Below, one piece after another: positions 2 to 7,997 of a stretch of 7,997 nucleotides of DNA. Positions within the stretch are counted from its first letter, which is position 1; each line of letters starts with the position of its first letter. Both the position numbers and the translations under genes were made by a program. The notes under the pieces are model-generated. The model saw nothing but the letters and a program-made list of their open reading frames with translations, was not told where the DNA came from and made no database searches. The stretch lies in the IMG/VR virus record IMGVR_UViG_2565956613_000013. One strand, written 5' to 3'. Origin of the DNA: a virus (Duplodnaviria; Heunggongvirae; Uroviricota; Caudoviricetes).

Positions 2-3000
2 ATGAAACGGCTTAATTTAGGGGACGTTTCTCGTGTAGTTCAGGAGGGCATTGCTCAACAGGAACAGCAGGCCAAATCAACTACACCAAAGGGTAAAAAA
101 AGACGCAGGAAGGCTATATCAGAGGATATAAAGGCACAACGGACCGAAGCAGCCGAACACGCTCGCGAAATGTTCGATCAAAAAGGCGGTGCGCAAAAAA
201 GCCAAAACCAACGCGATGCGCGTGGTCGTTTTATTGGAAAGTCAGGGAGTAAGGCCGCAGCGGAAGATGCCCGTGCTGAACGTGCTGAAAAGGCCAGGCG
301 CAAAGAGGATGATGAGCGTCTAAATGCTGAATCAGGTTTATTAAAAAAACTGTCAAAAGTAGCTGAAGGCATAGGTAACCCTTCAGAGACTCGTGCCGTC
401 GATGCGTTAGGTTATGCCGTTGCTGGTCCATTGTGGGCAGCAGGGAAGGAGCTTGGCGGGATATCAAAAGAAGTTGGTGGATCGCTTAATGGCGCCAGAA
501 AGTCTATTGCCGATGTGATTCGTGGCAATGACGATAACAGCCGTAGAAAAGGTTTTTTTAGGCGTAAATCGCAAAATAGTGCCGATGTCGTTCAGGTTAA
601 CACCCAAAAACGGACGGTTCAGGAACTTCAGGAGCAGACCAGCGAAATTAAAGAGGGCAATGACAAGATTCTCAGCGCCCTTGATCAGATAGCCAAAAAC
701 ACCGGGAAAAAGAAGGGCGGCTTGCTGTCCAAACTATTTAGCCTGTTAGGGAAGGGGGCCGGTGGCGTCGCGTCGTTGTTAATGGGGCGTGGCATGCTGA
801 AAAAAGCTGGAGCACTCGCTTTTGGCGCTCTGGGGGCAAAGAAACTTGTAGGAATGCTACGCGGTGGTGGCAAGAAGACTATCGCCCATGAAGGTGGAGA
901 TTTGGCTGCCCGGGCAGCAGGTAAATTTGGATTAAAGGCAGTTGGTAAAGGGGCGTTACGCGCAATTCCCTTAGTCGGCACAGTGGCTGGAGGTATTTAT
1001 GATGCGGTAACCGGTTGGAATGATACAGAAGCGCAACGTCGAGCGTTTGGGCTTAAATCAGGACAAGAGCCATCATTCCAGCAAAAAGCCGCTTATACGT
1101 TAGCCAATGTTCTTGATATGGGGGGACTGGTATCTGGTATTAGCAGCGCCATTGGTGAGGTTCTCAAATCACTTGGATTTGAGGATATCGGCAATATGTT
1201 GCAATCATTTTCGACGGAAAGTATTGCCCAGGCCATTGATAGTGGGATTACCAACTTAGAAACATATATTTCTAACCTTGGCGACACCATTTCTACCAAG
1301 TTCGAAGATTACACAGCAAAGATTGGTGATGCTGTTTCAGCATGGTTTAGCGATACATCTAATAAGCTGCTTGAAAAGCTGGATGCCATCAAAGACTTCT
1401 TTACTGTTGATAACCTGAAACAGGTTTTCAGTGATGCAATTGATAGTGCAATTGATTTCATTAAGAACCCAGGGAAACACATTAAAGAGGCGGCTGGTAA
1501 TATTTGGGATGGGGTTAAAAATTTACCTGGTAAAGCATTAGATGCAGCGGTTGATGCCGTTAAAAATACCCCTGCGGCAATGATTGTATCAAAAATACCC
1601 AATCCGATCGGCGAGGCTAATGCGAAAGAAATCACTCCGGAGTTAAAAGCTCCGGTTAATAGCCACCAGGAGACGTCTGATTCTAAAACTGAATCCGATG
1701 CCAAACAGAGTAATATTGCTACCCGCGTGATAAATGCGGCACTGGACACAGCGAAAGATAGCAATAAAACAGTTAAACAAACTGCCAATCAGATTATCAA
1801 TGCAAATGCCGTAGAAACGGGCAATAGCGCGTTGCAGAAAATTGATAAAGCTATTGGTCAAAATAGCTCGTCATCATCGTCGCTTAATACCACTGGCACC
1901 AGGAATGACATTCAGAAAGCTGCGGATACTTACAACAATGGCAACTTAGATGTAAAAGTCGGAAGTCTTGGCGCTGAAGGTAAGGCAAATCTCGATAAGT
2001 TGGCTCCGTATTTTGCCGAACTAGAGAATAAATACGGTCTTCCAGAAGGCACTCTTTACGCGATTGCTGCAACTGAATCTGGTGGTAATCCGTATGCAAA
2101 ATCCCAAACCGGTGCTCTGGGGATGTTTCAGTTCACGGGGATTGCTCGTGAAGAGACTGGCTTAGCTGAAGGTGAATCGTTTGATCCTGTGAAATCGGCA
2201 GAAGCTGCGGCTCTTCTCATGAGCAAGTATCTTAAGCAAGCCAATGGAGACTTAAACGAGGCCATCACTGCATATAATGCTGGGTTTGGCACTATTAATA
2301 AGTGGAAAAAAGGCACCGGTGACTTATCGAAAGAAAACCGTGAGTACGCGATCAAGGTCAATACTCATCGTGCTCGCTATTTAGGTGGTGAAATCTATAC
2401 ACCTGGAGCAGGAGCACAGGGTGGGGCGCAATATGGAGTGAGGGGACCACTGCCTGATAACGCTGTTATCGATCAGTATACTGGCCTGGCGTTTACCCCT
2501 GGTGATAGCCCGTTTGAGAAAGGCGGTCTGGTCGACAAAATCGGCAATGCTGTTGGCGTTAACGATCTGGTCAACAAATTCATGAATGACCGGGGGATGC
2601 GTCGGGAAGTCGTTCAGGGAACGCTAGAAGAACGTGCACGAGAGAAGGGGACCGCAACAGCAGCTGGCAATGTGTATGTTGATACTCCGATGCCAGTTGA
2701 AGAGGCGCGTCCGGTGGCCAACAACTCAAGTTACTTTGACCATCTCGGCGCACAAATGGGGATTGATGGACTATTCGATAAACTCCGCAACTCGCCGGGG
2801 ATGCGGAAAAATAATGCGCCTGAACCAGCCTCCACGTCCCAGGTGACGACTGCCGCCAACGATTTGCAGCAACCAACCGGTCGTATGCAGATAGACGGGC
2901 AGGTTATTAGTGACCTTGGCGGTTCCGGTGCCAAGCCGACAATGCAGTTGGCTGATAATACCGTTTCACTTGATGGTGAAACGAAGCGGCTGTTTGCGCA

Positions 3001-3160
3001 GATGACCTCATTGCTTGCCAGGATTGAAGAGCACACCAAAGACTCGGCGAAAGGCCAGGGAACTGTCGTAAAGGTCAGCACGCCTCAGCCGGGCGTTATG
3101 CGCACGGTACCACTGTCAATTGATGATCCGTTGATGAATGACTACGCGAGAGTTGATTGA
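2..3160 (+). CDS. sit: Phage tail tape-measure-like protein with an embedded lytic transglycosylase (SLT) domain, P1 Sit-like; 5' end probably cut by the window edge
   Basis: 1052-codon ORF from the ATG at 2-4 to the TGA at 3158-3160; only one base lies upstream, so the true start may be outside the window. Highly charged N-terminal region (KGKKRRRK, ERAEKARRKEDDER), then Gly/Ala/Lys-rich amphipathic segments (GGLLSKLFSLLGKGAGGVASLLMGRGMLKKAGALAFGALGAKK) typical of tape-measure proteins. SLT family motifs are present: AIAATESGGNP (Glu codon 2075-2077), GMFQF, AYNAG. The gene symbol rests on architecture, not on a sequence search. Confidence 0.8.
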   Translation: MKRLNLGDVSRVVQEGIAQQEQQAKSTTPKGKKRRRKAISEDIKAQRTEAAEHAREMFDQKGGAQKSQNQRDARGRFIGKSGSKAAAEDARAERAEKARRKEDDERLNAESGLLKKLSKVAEGIGNPSETRAVDALGYAVAGPLWAAGKELGGISKEVGGSLNGARKSIADVIRGNDDNSRRKGFFRRKSQNSADVVQVNTQKRTVQELQEQTSEIKEGNDKILSALDQIAKNTGKKKGGLLSKLFSLLGKGAGGVASLLMGRGMLKKAGALAFGALGAKKLVGMLRGGGKKTIAHEGGDLAARAAGKFGLKAVGKGALRAIPLVGTVAGGIYDAVTGWNDTEAQRRAFGLKSGQEPSFQQKAAYTLANVLDMGGLVSGISSAIGEVLKSLGFEDIGNMLQSFSTESIAQAIDSGITNLETYISNLGDTISTKFEDYTAKIGDAVSAWFSDTSNKLLEKLDAIKDFFTVDNLKQVFSDAIDSAIDFIKNPGKHIKEAAGNIWDGVKNLPGKALDAAVDAVKNTPAAMIVSKIPNPIGEANAKEITPELKAPVNSHQETSDSKTESDAKQSNIATRVINAALDTAKDSNKTVKQTANQIINANAVETGNSALQKIDKAIGQNSSSSSSLNTTGTRNDIQKAADTYNNGNLDVKVGSLGAEGKANLDKLAPYFAELENKYGLPEGTLYAIAATESGGNPYAKSQTGALGMFQFTGIAREETGLAEGESFDPVKSAEAAALLMSKYLKQANGDLNEAITAYNAGFGTINKWKKGTGDLSKENREYAIKVNTHRARYLGGEIYTPGAGAQGGAQYGVRGPLPDNAVIDQYTGLAFTPGDSPFEKGGLVDKIGNAVGVNDLVNKFMNDRGMRREVVQGTLEERAREKGTATAAGNVYVDTPMPVEEARPVANNSSYFDHLGAQMGIDGLFDKLRNSPGMRKNNAPEPASTSQVTTAANDLQQPTGRMQIDGQVISDLGGSGAKPTMQLADNTVSLDGETKRLFAQMTSLLARIEEHTKDSAKGQGTVVKVSTPQPGVMRTVPLSIDDPLMNDYARVD
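1990..2390 (+). other. Soluble lytic transglycosylase (SLT, family 1 type) catalytic domain inside the tape-measure-like ORF
   Basis: Translated segment LDKLAPYFAELENKYGLPEGTLYAIAATESGGNPYAKSQTGALGMFQFTGIAREETGL...AITAYNAGFGTINKWKKG carries the ES, GLMQ-like (GMFQ) and AYNAG signatures of lytic transglycosylases. Domain boundaries are approximate. Confidence 0.75.
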
Positions 3161-3516
3161 TGGCCAACAATAACGAAATTGATCCTTTGCTGACGCTGGA
3201 GTTATCCGGCGTAAAAACGTATGAGTCCCAGGAGGAGGCCTGGGGCGCTCGTTTATATGAGTGGCTAAACACTTATCAGGGTGAGGTATACGGAGATCCG
3301 TCATGGGGCAATGTTTTACCGCTGTTTAAACACGAACCGACCAACTTGTCGCATGTTCAAATTGCGGTTGAGGCAATGCTGTTGCAAAAACTGACGGTAG
3401 ATTTACCTGACATACCGATTTCTGGCTTGTCAGTAGCCGAGGGAGATGCTTTTGATAAGTTGAAAATATCCATTCGTATCAGGGATATAACTATCACACA
3501 GGACGTGGTGCTATGA
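3160..3516 (+). CDS. Small baseplate protein, gp25/GPW-like (P1 pmgA position)
   Basis: 118-codon ORF; its ATG at 3160-3162 overlaps the upstream TGA by one base (TGATG). The ORF track starts it at a TTG at 3157; I prefer the ATG. The segment EEAWGARLYEWLNTYQGEVYGDPSWGNVLPLFKHEPTN resembles the conserved core of GPW/gp25 baseplate wedge proteins as I recall it. Position directly after the tape-measure gene fits. Confidence 0.55.
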   Translation: MANNNEIDPLLTLELSGVKTYESQEEAWGARLYEWLNTYQGEVYGDPSWGNVLPLFKHEPTNLSHVQIAVEAMLLQKLTVDLPDIPISGLSVAEGDAFDKLKISIRIRDITITQDVVL

Positions 3517-4946
3517 GTAAAACAACACCGACTAAAGACAGTATTCGTGCAGAGTTTGAAGAGCTTGTCGAGAAAGATTCATTCTGGTCGAAGTTTGTCG
3601 GCTCTCAATTTGTCTCGATGCTGACATTGTTTATTACCCAGATTGTCTACAGGTGCTTTCAGTATGCCGATGCGGCGCTGGCTGAAGGCTTTATATCGAC
3701 CGCGACGCGGCGTTCCTCTATCCTGGCAGCGGCAGAAACGAATAGTTACGTTGGTACCAAGCCAACACCGTCATCGGGGATGATTGAGATCACCGCCACA
3801 AGTGAAGATGCCCCAGCGGTAATCCCCAAAAATATGCCTTTAATATCTGACGACCAGTACCCTTACATGACTATGGATGTATGCAGGTTGGTTGACGGCA
3901 CCGGTACGGTAGAAGTGGCACAGTTGGAAATCCAGGAGGTGACATATACCGTTACGGCAGCCAAAGAATTTCTGGAAGTCGTGTTATCAAAGGCTCTCAC
4001 TGCTGTCTGCTATAAGCTGGAAGTATTCGTGACGACCGATGGTAAGACCACGCAGTGGTCTTCCAGCACTATGTTCCGGTTAGCCGGTAGTAAAAGCCAG
4101 GTCTACGTTGAGTTTTATAAGCCATCCGAGCAGTTGGGGGTTCGATTCGGTGATGGGCTAATTGGGCAAATACCGCCAGAAGGCTCGACCATTACACTTA
4201 AGGTATGGTGCACCAACGGAGATATAACCCTGGTTGCTGGCCAAAACCTGACGCCTGTCGATTCTGCGGCTAATTTAGCTAATTTGATTTCAGTTAAGAC
4301 AACGACACCCATAACCGCAGGTACCGATGCCGAAACAACGGAGATCACACGTAATCGTGCACAATATTACCTTGCCTATGATGATCAGGTCGTATGGGGC
4401 GGGGACTATACGTATTTTTTGGTGCGTAACATCCCGGGACTGTCCTGGGTAAAGGCATGGGGCGAAGGCCAGCAAGAGAAATTAGATGGTGCTTATAATG
4501 TTCGGAATATCAATAAGATATTTATTTCAGGATGGCATCCAAACAAAAGCCAGTCAGAGCTTGAAGAAGTGATCCTGGCTGCCTTTAAGAAGGTGCCGAA
4601 TGAGTTGAACAAGAAATTCTCGTATAAAGAGGTCAGAAAACTCCCCTTTAAGATCACTATCACTGGGCGGATATCGGCAAGCCTGACCATTGAGAACGTG
4701 ACTGATGAGCTGAAGTCGGCACTGGAAACAAAATTTGGGCGTGACTCAACTTTCTTTGATCCGAACCGTGTTGGCAAGTACATCCTAATCAAGAAAAAAG
4801 ACGTTTGGGCATTTATCGAAACGCTGGGTTATTTCCGCGACTTTTATCTGGAATTTGTCGAGTGGAATGAGTCCAACGGCTTTTACGATTTCGTTTATCT
4901 GGATACAGAAAACTCCACCTTTAATATTTCGTATGAGGAGGAGTGA
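3513..4946 (+). CDS. Baseplate structural protein, probably baseplate-J / gp47-like (P1 bplA position)
   Basis: 477-codon ORF; its ATG at 3513 overlaps the upstream stop in an ATGA (4-nt) overlap, with AGGA about 10 nt upstream. The call is by synteny: phage baseplate modules run W-like, J-like, I-like, fibre. I did not recognise a specific motif. Confidence 0.5.
   Translation: MSKTTPTKDSIRAEFEELVEKDSFWSKFVGSQFVSMLTLFITQIVYRCFQYADAALAEGFISTATRRSSILAAAETNSYVGTKPTPSSGMIEITATSEDAPAVIPKNMPLISDDQYPYMTMDVCRLVDGTGTVEVAQLEIQEVTYTVTAAKEFLEVVLSKALTAVCYKLEVFVTTDGKTTQWSSSTMFRLAGSKSQVYVEFYKPSEQLGVRFGDGLIGQIPPEGSTITLKVWCTNGDITLVAGQNLTPVDSAANLANLISVKTTTPITAGTDAETTEITRNRAQYYLAYDDQVVWGGDYTYFLVRNIPGLSWVKAWGEGQQEKLDGAYNVRNINKIFISGWHPNKSQSELEEVILAAFKKVPNELNKKFSYKEVRKLPFKITITGRISASLTIENVTDELKSALETKFGRDSTFFDPNRVGKYILIKKKDVWAFIETLGYFRDFYLEFVEWNESNGFYDFVYLDTENSTFNISYEEE
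4934..4942 (+). promoter_or_regulatory. Strong Shine-Dalgarno sequence (GAGGAGGAG) for the gpI-like gene
   Basis: GAGGAGGAG ends 3 nt before the ATG at 4946, and lies inside the 3' end of the preceding gene; consistent with translational coupling. Confidence 0.6.
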
Positions 4947-5782
4947 TGCAGCGTTCCTGGTTTAATAACCGGCTTACATCAGCTAAGCAAAAGTCATTGC
5001 TCTATAAATCATTGGCTGATTTGGTTCAGTCAATGATGGATGCCTTTGTTGACCCATGGTTGGAGCGAATTACCAACCGGAAGTCTATTTTTTCCATGAG
5101 CAAGGAGGATCTGGAGACCAGGACAAATGAACTTGGCCAGTTCTTTACTATCAGAACGTCGAACTCATCTTCCGTTCCGATGTTGTTACAACAGCGTCTT
5201 GATGAGATTCACTTTAAGGGGACTGAACGCCCTATAAACCAGACAATTTACCGCGAATTTAACGGTATTTCTGTTTTATGGGATCCGATATATGCACCGG
5301 TGGACCTTGAGCGTCATCCCTATGGCACGGTTCTAATACCAGAAAGCACACTGGAGACTACCGGCGGCACATTCGGTGAGATGTTTCTGACTTCCAGAGG
5401 GATGATCAGTATTCCCATAAACGACCTGGCCCGGACAATGGGGATTACTGGCACGATAGATCAGTCCGCAATTACAGAAGAAATTCTCAGAAAGTTTAAT
5501 CAGTTCGTAAAGCCTCTACTGCCACTGCATATAGTGTTTGATGGGCTTACGCTCTATTTGTCGGTTGTTGTAAATGAACAGGCCGACATGATCACTTTGA
5601 ACGAGATTTCTGATACCGAAAAAGCATTCTGCTGGTTTGAAACTTCGGATACAACTTCGCTTACTGGAGTTACGTCGATTAGCGCCCCGATCACCGCAAC
5701 GCCTGGTGGCACTATTGTGAAAGCGACACCTACGTTTGATCGCACACGCGCAGATGATTTGTTGCTGGATAGCGACGCCTGA
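4946..5782 (+). CDS. Phage tail protein I-like baseplate protein (P2 gpI / Mu gp48 family; P1 gene 16 position)
   Basis: 278-codon ORF from the ATG at 4946, overlapping the upstream TGA by one base (TGATG); a strong Shine-Dalgarno GAGGAGGAG lies at 4934-4942. The track's alternative GTG start is at 4943. The segment IHFKGTERPINQTIYREF resembles the H-x-KGT region of P2 gpI-like proteins as I recall it. TGA stop at 5780-5782. Confidence 0.55.
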   Translation: MQRSWFNNRLTSAKQKSLLYKSLADLVQSMMDAFVDPWLERITNRKSIFSMSKEDLETRTNELGQFFTIRTSNSSSVPMLLQQRLDEIHFKGTERPINQTIYREFNGISVLWDPIYAPVDLERHPYGTVLIPESTLETTGGTFGEMFLTSRGMISIPINDLARTMGITGTIDQSAITEEILRKFNQFVKPLLPLHIVFDGLTLYLSVVVNEQADMITLNEISDTEKAFCWFETSDTTSLTGVTSISAPITATPGGTIVKATPTFDRTRADDLLLDSDA

Positions 5783-5785
5783 CAA

Positions 5786-5810
5786 TCACCCCGTCCGCAG
5801 GGCGGGGTGA
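5786..5810 (+). terminator. GC-rich hairpin in the intergenic gap: candidate weak intrinsic terminator, RNA-stabilising stem-loop, or dyad-symmetric regulator site
   Basis: TCACCCCG-TCCGCAGGG-CGGGGTGA: a perfect 8-bp inverted repeat around a 9-nt spacer, extendable by inner C-G pairs, starting 4 nt after the stop at 5782. The downstream sequence CAAGTTACTTCTCTTACAAT is only moderately T-rich, so any terminator would be weak. Confidence 0.3.
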
Positions 5811-5860
5811 CAAGTTACTTCTCTTACAATGAGGCTTCACAACATTGATTAGGGAAAATC

Positions 5861-6306: not shown

Positions 6307-7997
6307 ATGAATGACGTTACAGTTGTTACATCGGTTACTTACCCATCACCCGAGTCGTTGGCTCTGGTGGCTGATGTGCAATACCACGAACCATATCTGT
6401 CAGCCGCTCTAAACCGAAAATTCAGGGGAATTGTTGACCCGGGATTTTATGCTGGTTTCTTGCCTAAGCCTGGCGGTGGGATGAACCTGTTAATCACCTC
6501 AGTGGATGGAGATAAAACCGCTGGCGCGGCGTCAGTGGATATTGGTGAATTCTACCAGGTAACTATTCAGCATCGTAAGGATATCTCTCTTGCACTTAAC
6601 GCAGGCAAGAAATATGCAATTGTGCTGAAGGGAAGATACCTTCTTGGAGAAGATACCTATCAGGTGAATACCGCGTCACATATTCATGCAGCTGAATTTG
6701 TTGCCAGAACCTATACCGATTCATATCAGTTAGGTGATGGGGAACTGCTGGTTTGTACGGTGAATATCCCTGCTGGCGTATCTACCATTACTCAAGAGAT
6801 GATTGATACATCCGAGCGTATCAACCGCACGATCGGCATTGATATTTCAGACTCTGTAACCAGTACCAGAAGTGATGTTGCTGCGAGTTCGCTGGCAGTT
6901 AAAAAAGCCTACGATCTGGCGAAAAGCAAGTATACGGCGCAGGATGCAAGCACAACGCAAAAGGGATTAGTTCAGCTCAGTAGTGCCACTAACAGTACGT
7001 CCGAAGTGCTGGCCGCCACACCGAAAGCTGTCAAGGCTGCATATGACCTGGCTAACGGGAAGTATACAGCCCAGGATGCAACCACGACACAAAAAGGGAT
7101 AGTTCAGCTCAGTAGCGACACCAACAGCACTTCTGAAACATTAGCTGCAACTCCAAAAGCGGTTAAAGCTGCATACGATCTAGCAGCCGGAAAGGCACCA
7201 TCCAGTCATACACATCCCTGGAATCAGATCACTGGTGTGCCAACAGCTTCATTGACAGCGAAAGGCATCACTCAGCTCAGTAGTGCCACTAACAGCACGT
7301 CTGAAGTGCTGGCCGCCACACCGAAAGCTGTCAAGTCTGTAAAAGATCTTGCTGATACCAAAGCGCCAATAGAAAGCCCGAGTCTGACAGGAACGCCAAC
7401 CGCGCCGACGGCAGCGCAAGGTACAAACAGCACGCAGATCGCAAATACAGCCTTTGTTAAGGCAGCTATAACGGCACTTATCAACGGTGCACCTGGCACA
7501 TTGGATACGCTGAAAGAAATAGCGGCTGCGATCAATAACGACCCGAATTTCAGCACAACTATCAACAATGCCTTGGCTCTCAAAGCGCCTTTGGCAAGCC
7601 CTGCATTAACGGGTGTCCCTACTGCGCCTACCGCTGCACAGGGTACGAATAACACGCAGATTGCTACGACCGCTTATGTAAGAGCTGCCATATCCGCATT
7701 GGTTGGTTCATCACCAGAAGCTCTTGATACCCTGAATGAGCTTGCCGCAGCACTTGGCAATGACCCGAACTTTGCGACAACAATGACAAATGCGCTGGCA
7801 GGCAAACAGCCTCTGGATGCAACTTTAACCGCTCTCGCTGCCCTTGCGACTGGTGCAAACAAACTGCCTTATTTCACTGGTAAGGATACGGTAGCTCAGA
7901 CTGATTTAACGTCAGTCGGTCGCGATATTCTGGCTAAAACAAGCACACTGGCCGTTATCCAATACCTTGGTTTAAGAGAACTCGGTACCAGCGGTGA
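6307..7997 (+). CDS. Side tail fibre protein, constant N-terminal part (P1/Mu S-type, lambda Stf / P2 H-related); 3' partial, continues beyond the window
   Basis: I translated this by hand from the ATG at 6307 (AGGA at 6295-6298): frame 1 is open for 563 codons to the window end. It is missing from the supplied ORF track because it has no stop inside the window. It contains the tail-fibre repeat KG(L/I)VQLSSATNSTSE(V/T)LAATPKAVKAAYDLA and the conserved block NDPNFATTMTNALAGKQPLDATLTALAALATGANKLPYFTGKDTVAQTDLTSVGRDILAK that I recall from lambda Stf and P2 H. Confidence 0.9.
   Translation, partial: MNDVTVVTSVTYPSPESLALVADVQYHEPYLSAALNRKFRGIVDPGFYAGFLPKPGGGMNLLITSVDGDKTAGAASVDIGEFYQVTIQHRKDISLALNAGKKYAIVLKGRYLLGEDTYQVNTASHIHAAEFVARTYTDSYQLGDGELLVCTVNIPAGVSTITQEMIDTSERINRTIGIDISDSVTSTRSDVAASSLAVKKAYDLAKSKYTAQDASTTQKGLVQLSSATNSTSEVLAATPKAVKAAYDLANGKYTAQDATTTQKGIVQLSSDTNSTSETLAATPKAVKAAYDLAAGKAPSSHTHPWNQITGVPTASLTAKGITQLSSATNSTSEVLAATPKAVKSVKDLADTKAPIESPSLTGTPTAPTAAQGTNSTQIANTAFVKAAITALINGAPGTLDTLKEIAAAINNDPNFSTTINNALALKAPLASPALTGVPTAPTAAQGTNNTQIATTAYVRAAISALVGSSPEALDTLNELAAALGNDPNFATTMTNALAGKQPLDATLTALAALATGANKLPYFTGKDTVAQTDLTSVGRDILAKTSTLAVIQYLGLRELGTSG
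6901..7335 (+). repeat. In-frame tail-fibre repeats: two tandem 44-aa units (6901-7032, 7033-7164) plus a third partial copy (7258-7335)
   Basis: Units KKAYDLAKSKYTAQDASTTQKGLVQLSSATNSTSEVLAATPKAV and KAAYDLANGKYTAQDATTTQKGIVQLSSDTNSTSETLAATPKAV have a 132-nt period. Nucleotides 6972-7035 and 7272-7335 match over 64 nt with 2 mismatches (6996 and 7002), exactly 300 bp apart. Confidence 0.85.
7360..7803 (+). repeat. Two tandem 74-aa (222-nt) repeats in the tail fibre
   Basis: Unit 1 (7360-7581) KAPIESPSLTGTPTAPTAAQGTNSTQIANTAFVKAAITALINGAPGTLDTLKEIAAAINNDPNFSTTINNALAL versus unit 2 (7582-7803) KAPLASPALTGVPTAPTAAQGTNNTQIATTAYVRAAISALVGSSPEALDTLNELAAALGNDPNFATTMTNALAG; I counted 51/74 identical residues. 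The nucleotide sequences are diverged. Confidence 0.8.
7955..7980. other. Candidate 26-bp DNA-invertase crossover site (hix/gix/cix family) inside the fibre coding sequence; likely left boundary of an invertible host-range segment
   Basis: TTATCCAATACCTTGGTTTAAGAGAA. Its reverse complement TTCTCTTAAACCAAGGTATTGGATAA matches the Mu gixL sequence as I recall it (TTCCTGTAAACCGAGGTTTTGGATAA) at 21 of 26 positions, and matches Salmonella hixL at 20 of 26. It has the imperfect dyad around a central TT/AA typical of these sites, and it sits where P1 and Mu place the site in the S gene. Confidence 0.6.

Follow-up and report, generated by a model that had tools for sequence, protein, structure and literature searches.

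The tail protein Sit of a P1-like phage-plasmid has a lytic transglycosylase domain in its C-terminal third

The first gene of the 7,997-nucleotide stretch of viral DNA analysed here (the window; Caudoviricetes record IMGVR_UViG_2565956613_000013) is a long, tape-measure-like open reading frame with motifs of a peptidoglycan-cleaving enzyme. This raises the question of whether a tail protein brings its own murein-cutting domain into the virion and which other functions that protein has. The sit allele in the window comes from a P1-like phage-plasmid. The window shows 96.6-97.8% DNA identity to P1, P7 and JL22 over 96-97% of its length, is 99.9% identical to the E. coli plasmid NZ_MK410117.1 (P1-like), and has the gene order sit-pmgA-bplA-16-R-S in common with P1, P7 and JL22. 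The preliminary description of this locus had found it consistent with P1 Sit, and in agreement with this the encoded protein is the orthologue of P1 Sit (96.6% DNA identity), with neighbouring genes, architecture and the catalytic Glu (E770) in common. P1 Sit (AAQ14011.1) is annotated as 'putative structural injection transglycosylase; putative tail ruler' and was earlier named 'orf47 structural lytic transglycosylase' (AF035607); the 'orf47' mentioned in PMC5380687 belongs to other phages only. Sit with an SLT domain has been present in annotations since 1998 and 2004. The reading of an SLT domain in Sit is correct and already known, and our result mainly confirms a textbook-level annotation.

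The sit coding sequence occupies positions 2..3160 of the plus strand according to the ORF list, the P1/JL22 annotation and the protein alignment. It ends with the stop codon TGA at 3158-3160, while its 5' end is cut by the window edge. By P1/JL22 coordinates and protein alignment, nt 2 of the window falls on codon 79 of a ~1130-aa Sit, and PHROG 2533 is aligned to Sit at profile positions 79-1130 of 1130. Full-length residue numbers are therefore obtained by adding 78 to those of the window ORF, which places the catalytic Glu at E770 and the Pfam domain at residues 748-857 of 1130. The 1052-residue ORF described before is present as listed, but it is a truncated gene, and the domain, formerly placed in the middle of the protein, lies at 66-76% of full-length Sit and hence in its C-terminal third; the coordinates given here correct for this. 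According to the annotation tables of P1 and JL22, tub and pmgB lie upstream of sit. Downstream, baseplate wedge genes occupy 3160..5782 on the plus strand, a context expected 3' of a tape-measure gene. These are pmgA (3160-3516; gp25-like baseplate wedge by P1 annotation and PHROGs), bplA (3513-4946; gp6/J-like by Pfam Gp6-like and Baseplate_J matches and P1 annotation) and gene 16 (4946-5782; baseplate wedge by P1 annotation and PHROGs baseplate/tail families), which were assigned by cryo-EM to BW1, BW3 and BW2, respectively (PMC12810830). Two minus-strand ORFs underneath the domain (1884-2099 and 2128-2361) were dismissed as frame shadows, with no credible family match and unannotated in any relative.

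The folded lytic transglycosylase domain covers 1898..2377 on the plus strand (ORF residues 633-792, full-length ~711-870), with AF2 pLDDT values of 81-97 that exceed 90 over the core, and this comes close to the residues 664-796 of the first estimate. Within it, the Pfam SLT core (PF01464) extends over 2009-2338 on the same strand (ORF residues 670-779) and matches profile positions 2-115 of 117 at 93.6 bits (E=8.1e-27), a score far beyond chance at a gathering cut-off of 21.3 bits. Motif I (ES) provides the predicted catalytic Glu, encoded by GAA at 2075..2077 on the plus strand (ORF E692). It lies within the sequence AIAATESGG, where TES comprises ORF residues 691-693 (nt 2072-2080) and E692-S693 are encoded by nt 2075-2080; E692-S693 are aligned to ES of the PDB chains of MltC (9vi7, 4c5f) and MltD (8rhe). 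The Glu is retained in every homologue covering its column; a search for homologous proteins gave 27 sequences, mostly partial and <470 aa. The remaining plus-strand motifs are motif II, GMFQ, a variant of G-L-M-Q (2120..2131; ORF residues 707-710), motif III, AYNAG (2270..2284; ORF residues 757-761), and the motif IV Tyr, ORF Y782 (2345..2347), which occupies the near-invariant column Y150 of alignment A2. G707 and Q710 of motif II as well as Y758 and G761 of motif III are also near-invariant in A2, and GLMQ, GLFQ and GMFQ variants of motif II occur among the homologues. All three motifs of the preliminary description, including the codon of its Glu, were found at the positions it gave.

Foldseek matched the AF2 model of ORF residues 633-792 to PDB entries of MltD, Slt, Slt70, MltE, MltF, MltC and T7 gp16. 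The best 50 PDB matches were all lytic transglycosylases or T7 gp16, with a probability of 1.00, and fold matches in BFVD included the PRD1 transglycosylase, tail tape measure proteins and internal virion proteins. Both checks that had been suggested along with the SLT assignment, the Pfam search and structure prediction, agree with it, the latter at the level of the fold. Motifs, profile and fold place the domain among the family-1 (goose-lysozyme-like, GH23) lytic transglycosylases. It has the fold and all four motifs in common with Slt70, MltC, MltD, MltE and MltF (Pfam SLT, GH23), and the Glu residues are aligned, while sequence identity between the bacterial family-1 enzymes and the Sit domain is only 17-26%. 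Their settings differ as well: the bacterial relatives are periplasmic enzymes or lipoproteins, whereas the Sit domain is embedded in a phage tail protein of >1100 aa and, unlike the bacterial enzymes, has no signal peptide or lipobox context.

Judged from sequence and fold, Sit is probably muralytic. No enzymatic assay of Sit was found in the papers that were searched. A domain that is catalytically dead, or that only binds peptidoglycan and would serve to fix or position the tip of the tail within the periplasm instead of cutting murein, might be considered, since activity is deduced from sequence and fold only, motif II reads GMFQ and not GLMQ, and alleles of Sit tolerate an insertion of 8-10 residues beside the catalytic loop. 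We regard this as very improbable, because GLFQ and GMFQ are found among the homologues, too, and because of what the alleles of the domain reveal. The Sit protein of this window comprises 1130 aa, as in JL22, and P1 Sit 1140 aa. The ten additional residues of P1 (TLTRSPNGKL) are encoded by 30 nt that fall between window nt 2104 and 2105, between motifs I and II, and around that site a patch of ~110 nt (2084..2197, plus strand; ORF residues 695-732) is diverged from reference P1 in the protein and DNA alignments. It is the short allele of this window that has the canonical spacing from ES to GxxQ, as in MltC and MltD. Compared to P1, the diverged patch shows a dS of ~1.8 and a dN/dS of 0.11, and the whole fold a dN/dS of 0.115, all amino-acid changes being confined to the recombinant patch. 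The SLT fold is under strong purifying selection, which argues against a dead or merely binding module.

Mosaic breakpoints in relatives delimit an exchangeable SLT cassette at 1832..2491 on the plus strand (ORF residues ~611-830). The relative P0013 is 90-100% identical outside the cassette and 15-60% inside, and in Sit proteins that are identical elsewhere a third SLT module with ~35-50% identity is spliced in. Among plasmid records, the canonical short allele occurs 201 times and the P1-type allele 209 times. As a recombining cassette, the SLT module occurs in three alleles, whose sequences diverge by up to ~50-65% and which all retain the four motifs; preservation of Glu-Ser, the motif II Gln, AYN/HxG and the motif IV Tyr through such divergence again points to an active enzyme. 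If the alleles differ in function, the SLT module would be a specificity determinant of the tail enzyme, with possible differences in substrate-groove geometry, in tolerance of host peptidoglycan modifications or in evasion of periplasmic inhibitors. This allelic cassette structure is of modest interest for phage structural biology.

An active SLT domain could act at either end of the infection cycle. PHROG 669, which matches residues 500-1046, carries the label 'endolysin' and would suit an enzyme for lysis from within at the end of infection instead of an entry enzyme, although such a label is a family-level annotation and not a test. P1 has its own separate lysis system with lyz, lydA and lydB, and a 120-kDa protein locked in tail tubes would be a poor lysis enzyme. 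The gene sit is located within the tail/baseplate late operon behind the LPsit promoter (P1 annotation), and its product is a structural protein of the virion, with 23 peptides found in P1 virions by mass spectrometry (PMC9024508). A role as endolysin therefore has a negligible probability. P1 gp5 is devoid of the lysozyme domain of T4 gp5 (PMC9024508). As far as sequence and model allow, P1 would rely for murein cutting on Sit, its tape-measure/injection protein, and do without a tail lysozyme of the T4 gp5 type. In a CRISPRi study sit was scored as essential (PMC10695390). This score is specific neither to sit nor to the SLT domain, since CRISPRi can be polar on downstream baseplate genes.

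The tape-measure role of Sit is less direct than its SLT domain: published work argues for it from the size and helicity of the protein, the place of the gene and the detection of Sit in virions. The earlier view of a tape measure with an SLT domain holds for the SLT part by profile and fold, while the tape-measure half is without a profile match: no tape-measure family of Pfam (searched to E=10), NCBIfam (to E=1) or PHROGs was matched by the N-terminal 633 aa or the C-terminal 256 aa. Matches of the non-SLT parts to ESAT-6-like, DnaD and INO80F families were far below the cut-offs and were discarded as noise. Since tape-measure proteins are poorly conserved, the missing profile is weak evidence against a ruler. 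A single-sequence AF2 model of the whole ORF contains ~66% helix over residues 1-632, which at a mean pLDDT of 42 serves as a rough helix count only, and it agrees with the helical Quick2D prediction for P1 Sit (PMC9024508). Cryo-EM of P1 did not resolve Sit, but revealed low-resolution tape-measure density at the baseplate centre (PMC12810830).

The fold matches suggest a different comparison. T7 gp16 (internal virion protein D), a component of the ejectosome (PDB 7k5c), is matched by the Sit domain in Foldseek (7k5c_B), and many T7-like genes for an 'internal virion protein with endolysin domain' are 30-38% identical to the SLT part of Sit (tblastn). Like Sit, gp16 is carried in the virion, and during infection it is expelled to pass the murein layer. 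In gp16, a capsid-core protein of a short-tailed phage, the domain is N-terminal, whereas the Sit domain belongs to the C-terminal third of a protein of the tail lumen in a contractile tail. PHROG 342 aligns with the SLT part only (residues 670-787 to profile positions 18-140 of 1235), and in this alignment no gp16-type homology was found in Sit beyond the SLT domain. The P1 literature assigns Sit to the tail/baseplate (PMC9024508, PMC12810830).

Parallels in architecture are T5 pb2 and Tmp of mycobacteriophage TM4, where, as proposed for Sit, a long helical ruler bears a peptidoglycan hydrolase module nearer its C-terminal end. Their enzyme classes differ from that of Sit, the motif in T5 pb2 being of the peptidase type and those in TM4 Tmp Rpf-like and peptidase motifs, and both phages are siphophages. 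Outside the SLT domain no sequence relation of Sit to pb2 or TM4 Tmp was detected. Sit has been likened to muralytic tape measures in the P1 literature before (PMC9024508).

With regard to tail length, Sit can be compared with the tape-measure protein gp42 of Mu, likewise a myophage, whose simple baseplate is homologous to that of P1. The trimeric C-terminus of gp42 is held in hub and spike, and the protein is ejected on contraction; to our knowledge, no lytic domain is known in Mu gp42. Sit provides 21.3-21.5 residues per 40-A tube ring (1130-1140 aa, 53 rings, with the SLT residues counted) and the Mu tape measure ~23 (~690 aa, 30 rings), so that the two ratios agree within about 7%. At 1.5 A per residue, 1130-1140 aa correspond to ~1700 A compared to a tube of 2120 A, and this shortfall grows if the ~160-residue domain is folded. 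A stronger claim that Sit is too short for a ruler was softened in view of the similar Mu ratio. Sit could have an active SLT domain and yet be an ejected 'injection' protein, similar in function to T7 gp16, that does no more than occupy the lumen of the tail, with tail length set by another factor or jointly. Such a role would fit the absence of a tape-measure profile match in the three collections, the calculated reach, the SLT homology to T7-like internal virion proteins, the label 'internal (core) protein' in the JL22 annotation and the variable tail length of gene 6 knockouts (PMC9024508). We consider it quite unlikely, because gp6 is a 338-aa hub protein and too short for a ruler (PMC9024508), the annotated P1 tail cluster holds no other long helical candidate, the residues-per-ring value approaches that of the established Mu tape measure, sit follows the tail tube/chaperone genes tub and pmgB and precedes the baseplate genes, and the conservation of the C-terminus resembles that of tape-measure proteins anchored in the hub.

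For a ruler, the length arithmetic works only if the SLT residues are counted, which would imply that the domain travels unfolded or axially staggered and folds after ejection. A folded domain of ~160 residues measures ~34 A across by our own estimate compared to a lumen of 40 A, and since it would nearly fill the lumen three folded copies cannot sit abreast. The fitting and counting of such an enzyme in the tail lumen is also of modest interest. That the SLT cassette represents a balanced polymorphism in P1-like phage-plasmids, or that the domain is unfolded or axially staggered in the lumen, are speculative extensions which we hold to be rather unlikely.

The regions around the domain are all on the plus strand. 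The N-terminal tape-measure-like part (2..1897; ORF residues 1-632) has a Lys/Arg-rich start, followed by a Gly/Ala/Lys-rich amphipathic block (722-1051; ORF residues ~241-350) and then mostly helical sequence. The strongest Gly-rich block of the composition table lies here, far upstream of the domain (28% Gly at ORF residues 251-300). The low-complexity and Gly-rich flanks noted previously are apparent on both sides. Upstream of the domain, a polar Ser/Thr/Asn/Gln-rich segment with an SSSSSS run (1652..1951; ORF residues 551-650) reaches 44-46% S+T+N+Q in 50-residue windows. On the 3' side of the domain a Gly/Pro-rich linker (2387..2491), identified by composition, is mostly predicted to be disordered; ORF residues 801-850 contain 22% Gly and 10% Pro and are mostly of low confidence in the AF2 model, with pLDDT <50 at fragment residues 165-185 and 192-197. 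The C-terminal region follows at 2492..3157 (ORF residues 831-1052). Its last ~30 residues (3068-3157) are a candidate hub/spike anchor, as the last 20-30 residues of Sit retain 87-93% identity in relatives that fall to 0-30% in the sequence before them; the hub-held C-terminus of the Mu protein and the density at the centre of the P1 baseplate fit such an anchor.

Taken as a whole, the region very probably encodes the catalytic, lytic transglycosylase part of the Sit protein, which belongs to the virion tail in a P1-like phage-plasmid, while its enzymatic activity, the order of ejection and the ruler function are what we infer. We propose that, as the tail is assembled, Sit would be placed in the lumen of the tube and anchored in the baseplate hub by its conserved C-terminus, and would contribute to setting tail length. 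Sheath contraction would push the spike through the outer membrane, and Sit would then leave ahead of the DNA. Since the SLT domain is ~270 residues from the C-terminus of Sit, it should be among the first parts to come out. In the periplasm it would open the murein mesh locally, using the single Glu (E692 of the ORF, E770 of the full-length protein) as acid/base to cleave the MurNAc-beta-1,4-GlcNAc bond of peptidoglycan with formation of 1,6-anhydro-MurNAc. The Gly/Ala-rich amphipathic segments of the N-terminal part may subsequently aid DNA passage across the inner membrane.

The window shares 96.6-97.8% DNA identity over 96-97% of its length with the phages P1, P7, JL22 and RCS47, and 99.9% identity with the E. 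coli plasmid NZ_MK410117.1 (~95 kb). Because of this near-identity we assign it, by sequence, to the P1-like phage-plasmids (Punavirus). In P1 and JL22 the annotated genes run sit, pmgA, bplA, 16, R, S, and the large ORF at 2-3160 (+) is sit, the 5' part of which is cut off by the window edge. Since the P1 match begins 233 nt inside sit, window nt 2 corresponds to codon 79, and the ATG found there is an internal Met. The residue numbers of the preliminary description, taken from this truncated ORF and also used here, therefore need a shift of +78 for full-length Sit, while its nucleotide coordinates for the motifs hold. Sit comprises 1130 aa in the window's allele and in JL22, and 1140 aa in reference P1.

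The earlier comparison with P1 Sit was apt, as the ORF is sit and already annotated as a transglycosylase. The SLT domain of Sit is a known feature: the P1 record reads 'putative structural injection transglycosylase; putative tail ruler', and the 1998 entry AF035607 'structural lytic transglycosylase'. Gonzales et al. (2022; PMC9024508) mapped the domain to residues ~750-900 and regarded Sit as the tape-measure protein. The proposed catalytic Glu is indeed encoded by GAA at 2075-2077 within AIAATESGG; GMFQ from nt 2120 and AYNAG from nt 2270 were likewise found, and the Tyr of the fourth motif lies at 2345-2347. The SLT profile (PF01464) matches ORF residues 670-779 (nt 2009-2338; E=8.1e-27) with 93.6 bits (gathering threshold 21.3), almost the whole profile being covered, and phmmer against PDB sequences pairs the ES dipeptide with that of MltC and MltD. 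For ORF residues 633-900, 27 homologues were collected, of which 21 were aligned with the query; AlphaFold2 on this alignment models residues 633-792 with pLDDT 81-97 and the Gly/Pro-rich stretch after residue 792 mostly with low confidence. In Foldseek searches with this model the top PDB matches were all lytic transglycosylases, including, at probability 1.00, P. aeruginosa MltD and Slt, E. coli Slt70, MltE and MltC, MltF, and the T7 ejectosome protein gp16 (7k5c_B). Matching predicted viral structures comprise the PRD1 transglycosylase, tail tape-measure proteins and T7-like internal virion proteins. With the profile match this strong and the predicted fold that of lytic transglycosylases, neither ground named beforehand for giving up the domain (no significant profile match, or a fold lacking the lysozyme-like groove) applies at the level of profile and predicted fold. 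That the domain is an inactive peptidoglycan-binding module is very unlikely, although the literature searched yielded no enzymatic assay of Sit. Minus-strand ORFs under the domain were rejected as genes, as a family search returned no credible match.

Sit was detected in P1 virions with 23 peptides by LC-MS/MS (PMC9024508); an endolysin role, with the SLT domain acting from within, is hardly credible. As P1 gp5 lacks the lysozyme domain of T4 gp5 (PMC9024508), Sit probably supplies the lysozyme-type activity. In a CRISPRi screen sit came out as essential, with polarity on downstream genes possible (PMC10695390). We consider it very probable that Sit resides in the tail lumen of the virion and that its family-1 lytic transglycosylase domain cuts the murein locally when the phage enters. 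During assembly its N-terminal helical body would act as the ruler; upon sheath contraction Sit would be expelled from the tube, and its SLT domain would then cut the murein. T7 gp16 and TM4 Tmp are established analogues for such an entry role, and by this analogy a Glu-to-Gln mutant is expected to show a conditional rather than a lethal entry defect.

The tape-measure assignment draws on gene position, size, helicity and virion presence; searches of Pfam, NCBIfam and PHROGs with the parts outside the SLT domain gave no tape-measure match. A single-sequence AlphaFold2 model of the whole ORF, poor with a mean pLDDT of 42, has ~66% helix over ORF residues 1-632 and ~21% after the domain, in agreement with the published secondary-structure prediction (PMC9024508). 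The P1 tail has 53 rings with a rise of 40 A and a lumen of 40 A; Sit itself was not resolved by cryo-EM, and the baseplate centre holds low-resolution density (PMC12810830). At 1.5 A per residue, 1130-1140 aa would span ~1700 A compared to a 2120 A tube, and published tail lengths conflict (120 nm, PMC9024508; 2450 A by cryo-EM). The empirical per-ring figure agrees better: Mu has ~23 residues per ring (~690 aa, 30 rings) and Sit 21.3-21.5, an agreement that holds only with the SLT residues counted. By our own estimate a folded 160-residue domain is ~34 A across and would nearly fill the 40 A lumen, with three copies to house; this packing question goes slightly past the literature read. An active SLT enzyme in a Sit that is not the ruler is improbable, if less so than the inactive module.

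The domain had been placed in the middle of the protein, but at full-length residues 748-857 of 1130 it lies in the C-terminal third, followed by ~270 residues. The final 20-30 residues are 87-93% identical in relatives, while identity just before them drops to 0-30%; this conserved end would fit a hub anchor like the C-terminus of the Mu tape-measure protein. Low-complexity sequence upstream was confirmed (ORF residues 551-650, 44-46% Ser/Thr/Asn/Gln). The proposed Gly-rich flank exists at residues 801-850 (22% Gly, 10% Pro; mostly low-confidence in the AlphaFold2 model), but the strongest Gly block, which is amphipathic, lies far upstream at 251-300 (28% Gly), with enrichment to ~350. The surrounding Gly/Ala/Lys-rich amphipathic block at nt 722-1051 (ORF residues ~241-350), e.g. 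GGLLSKLFSLLGKGAGGVASLLMGRGMLKKAGALAFGALGAKKLVGML, may insert into membranes, as has been suggested for segments of other tape-measure proteins; no 19-residue window gave a clear transmembrane score (maximum Kyte-Doolittle 1.35).

Slightly past the literature read is also the allelic nature of the domain. Compared to reference P1, 30 nt (10 aa, TLTRSPNGKL) are missing from the window's allele between motifs I and II, the indel site lying between nt 2104 and 2105 in a diverged patch of ~110 nt (2084-2197; dS ~1.8, dN/dS 0.11). Outside the patch the fold differs from P1 only synonymously (whole-fold dN/dS 0.115), and this combination points to recombination with a more distantly related allele, under purifying selection. 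Between ES and GxxQ the short allele shows the canonical spacing seen in MltC and MltD. It occurs in 201 plasmid records (at least 99% identical) and the P1-type in 209 (80-90% identical; 450 nt, against 420 nt for the short allele); phage records hold 7 and 13, respectively. The homologous proteins P0013, P0014 and P0016 carry a third module, 15-60% identical over ORF residues ~611-830 (window ~1832-2491), between flanks 90-100% identical to Sit. Since a divergent module sits inside near-identical flanks, the SLT domain with its linkers behaves as an exchangeable cassette. The Glu-Ser, GxFQ, AY(N/H)AG and Tyr motifs are kept in all aligned alleles.

Downstream, the sit stop TGA shares one base with the pmgA ATG (3158-3162), and pmgA/bplA (3513-3516) and bplA/16 (4943-4946) overlap by 1-4 bases, depending on the gene 16 start chosen. 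Such tight overlaps suggest that translation of the tape-measure gene is coupled to that of the baseplate wedge genes. In four matching plasmid records (H81, H83, H84, H88) a P1 tail/baseplate gene under the window is labelled "bleomycin hydrolase", apparently an annotation artefact. The P1 late promoter LPs has its counterpart between gene 16 and R, AAGTTACTT-ctct-TACAAT (5812-5830), directly preceded by a GC-rich hairpin, CACCCCGTCCGCAGGGCGGGGTG (5786-5808). The constant part of the tail-fibre gene S (6307-7997) is ~300 nt longer than in P1, P7 and JL22 (1698 nt in the query, 1398 nt in those records). It contains a 132-nt unit three times at 6907-7338 (100%, 75% and 64% identity), and the fibre shaft here probably carries an added repeat element. 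At 7958-7977 the Cin recombinase site cixR, TCCAATACCTTGGTTTAAGA, is the same as in P1, and the window ends just within the invertible C segment, the switch of tail-fibre host range.
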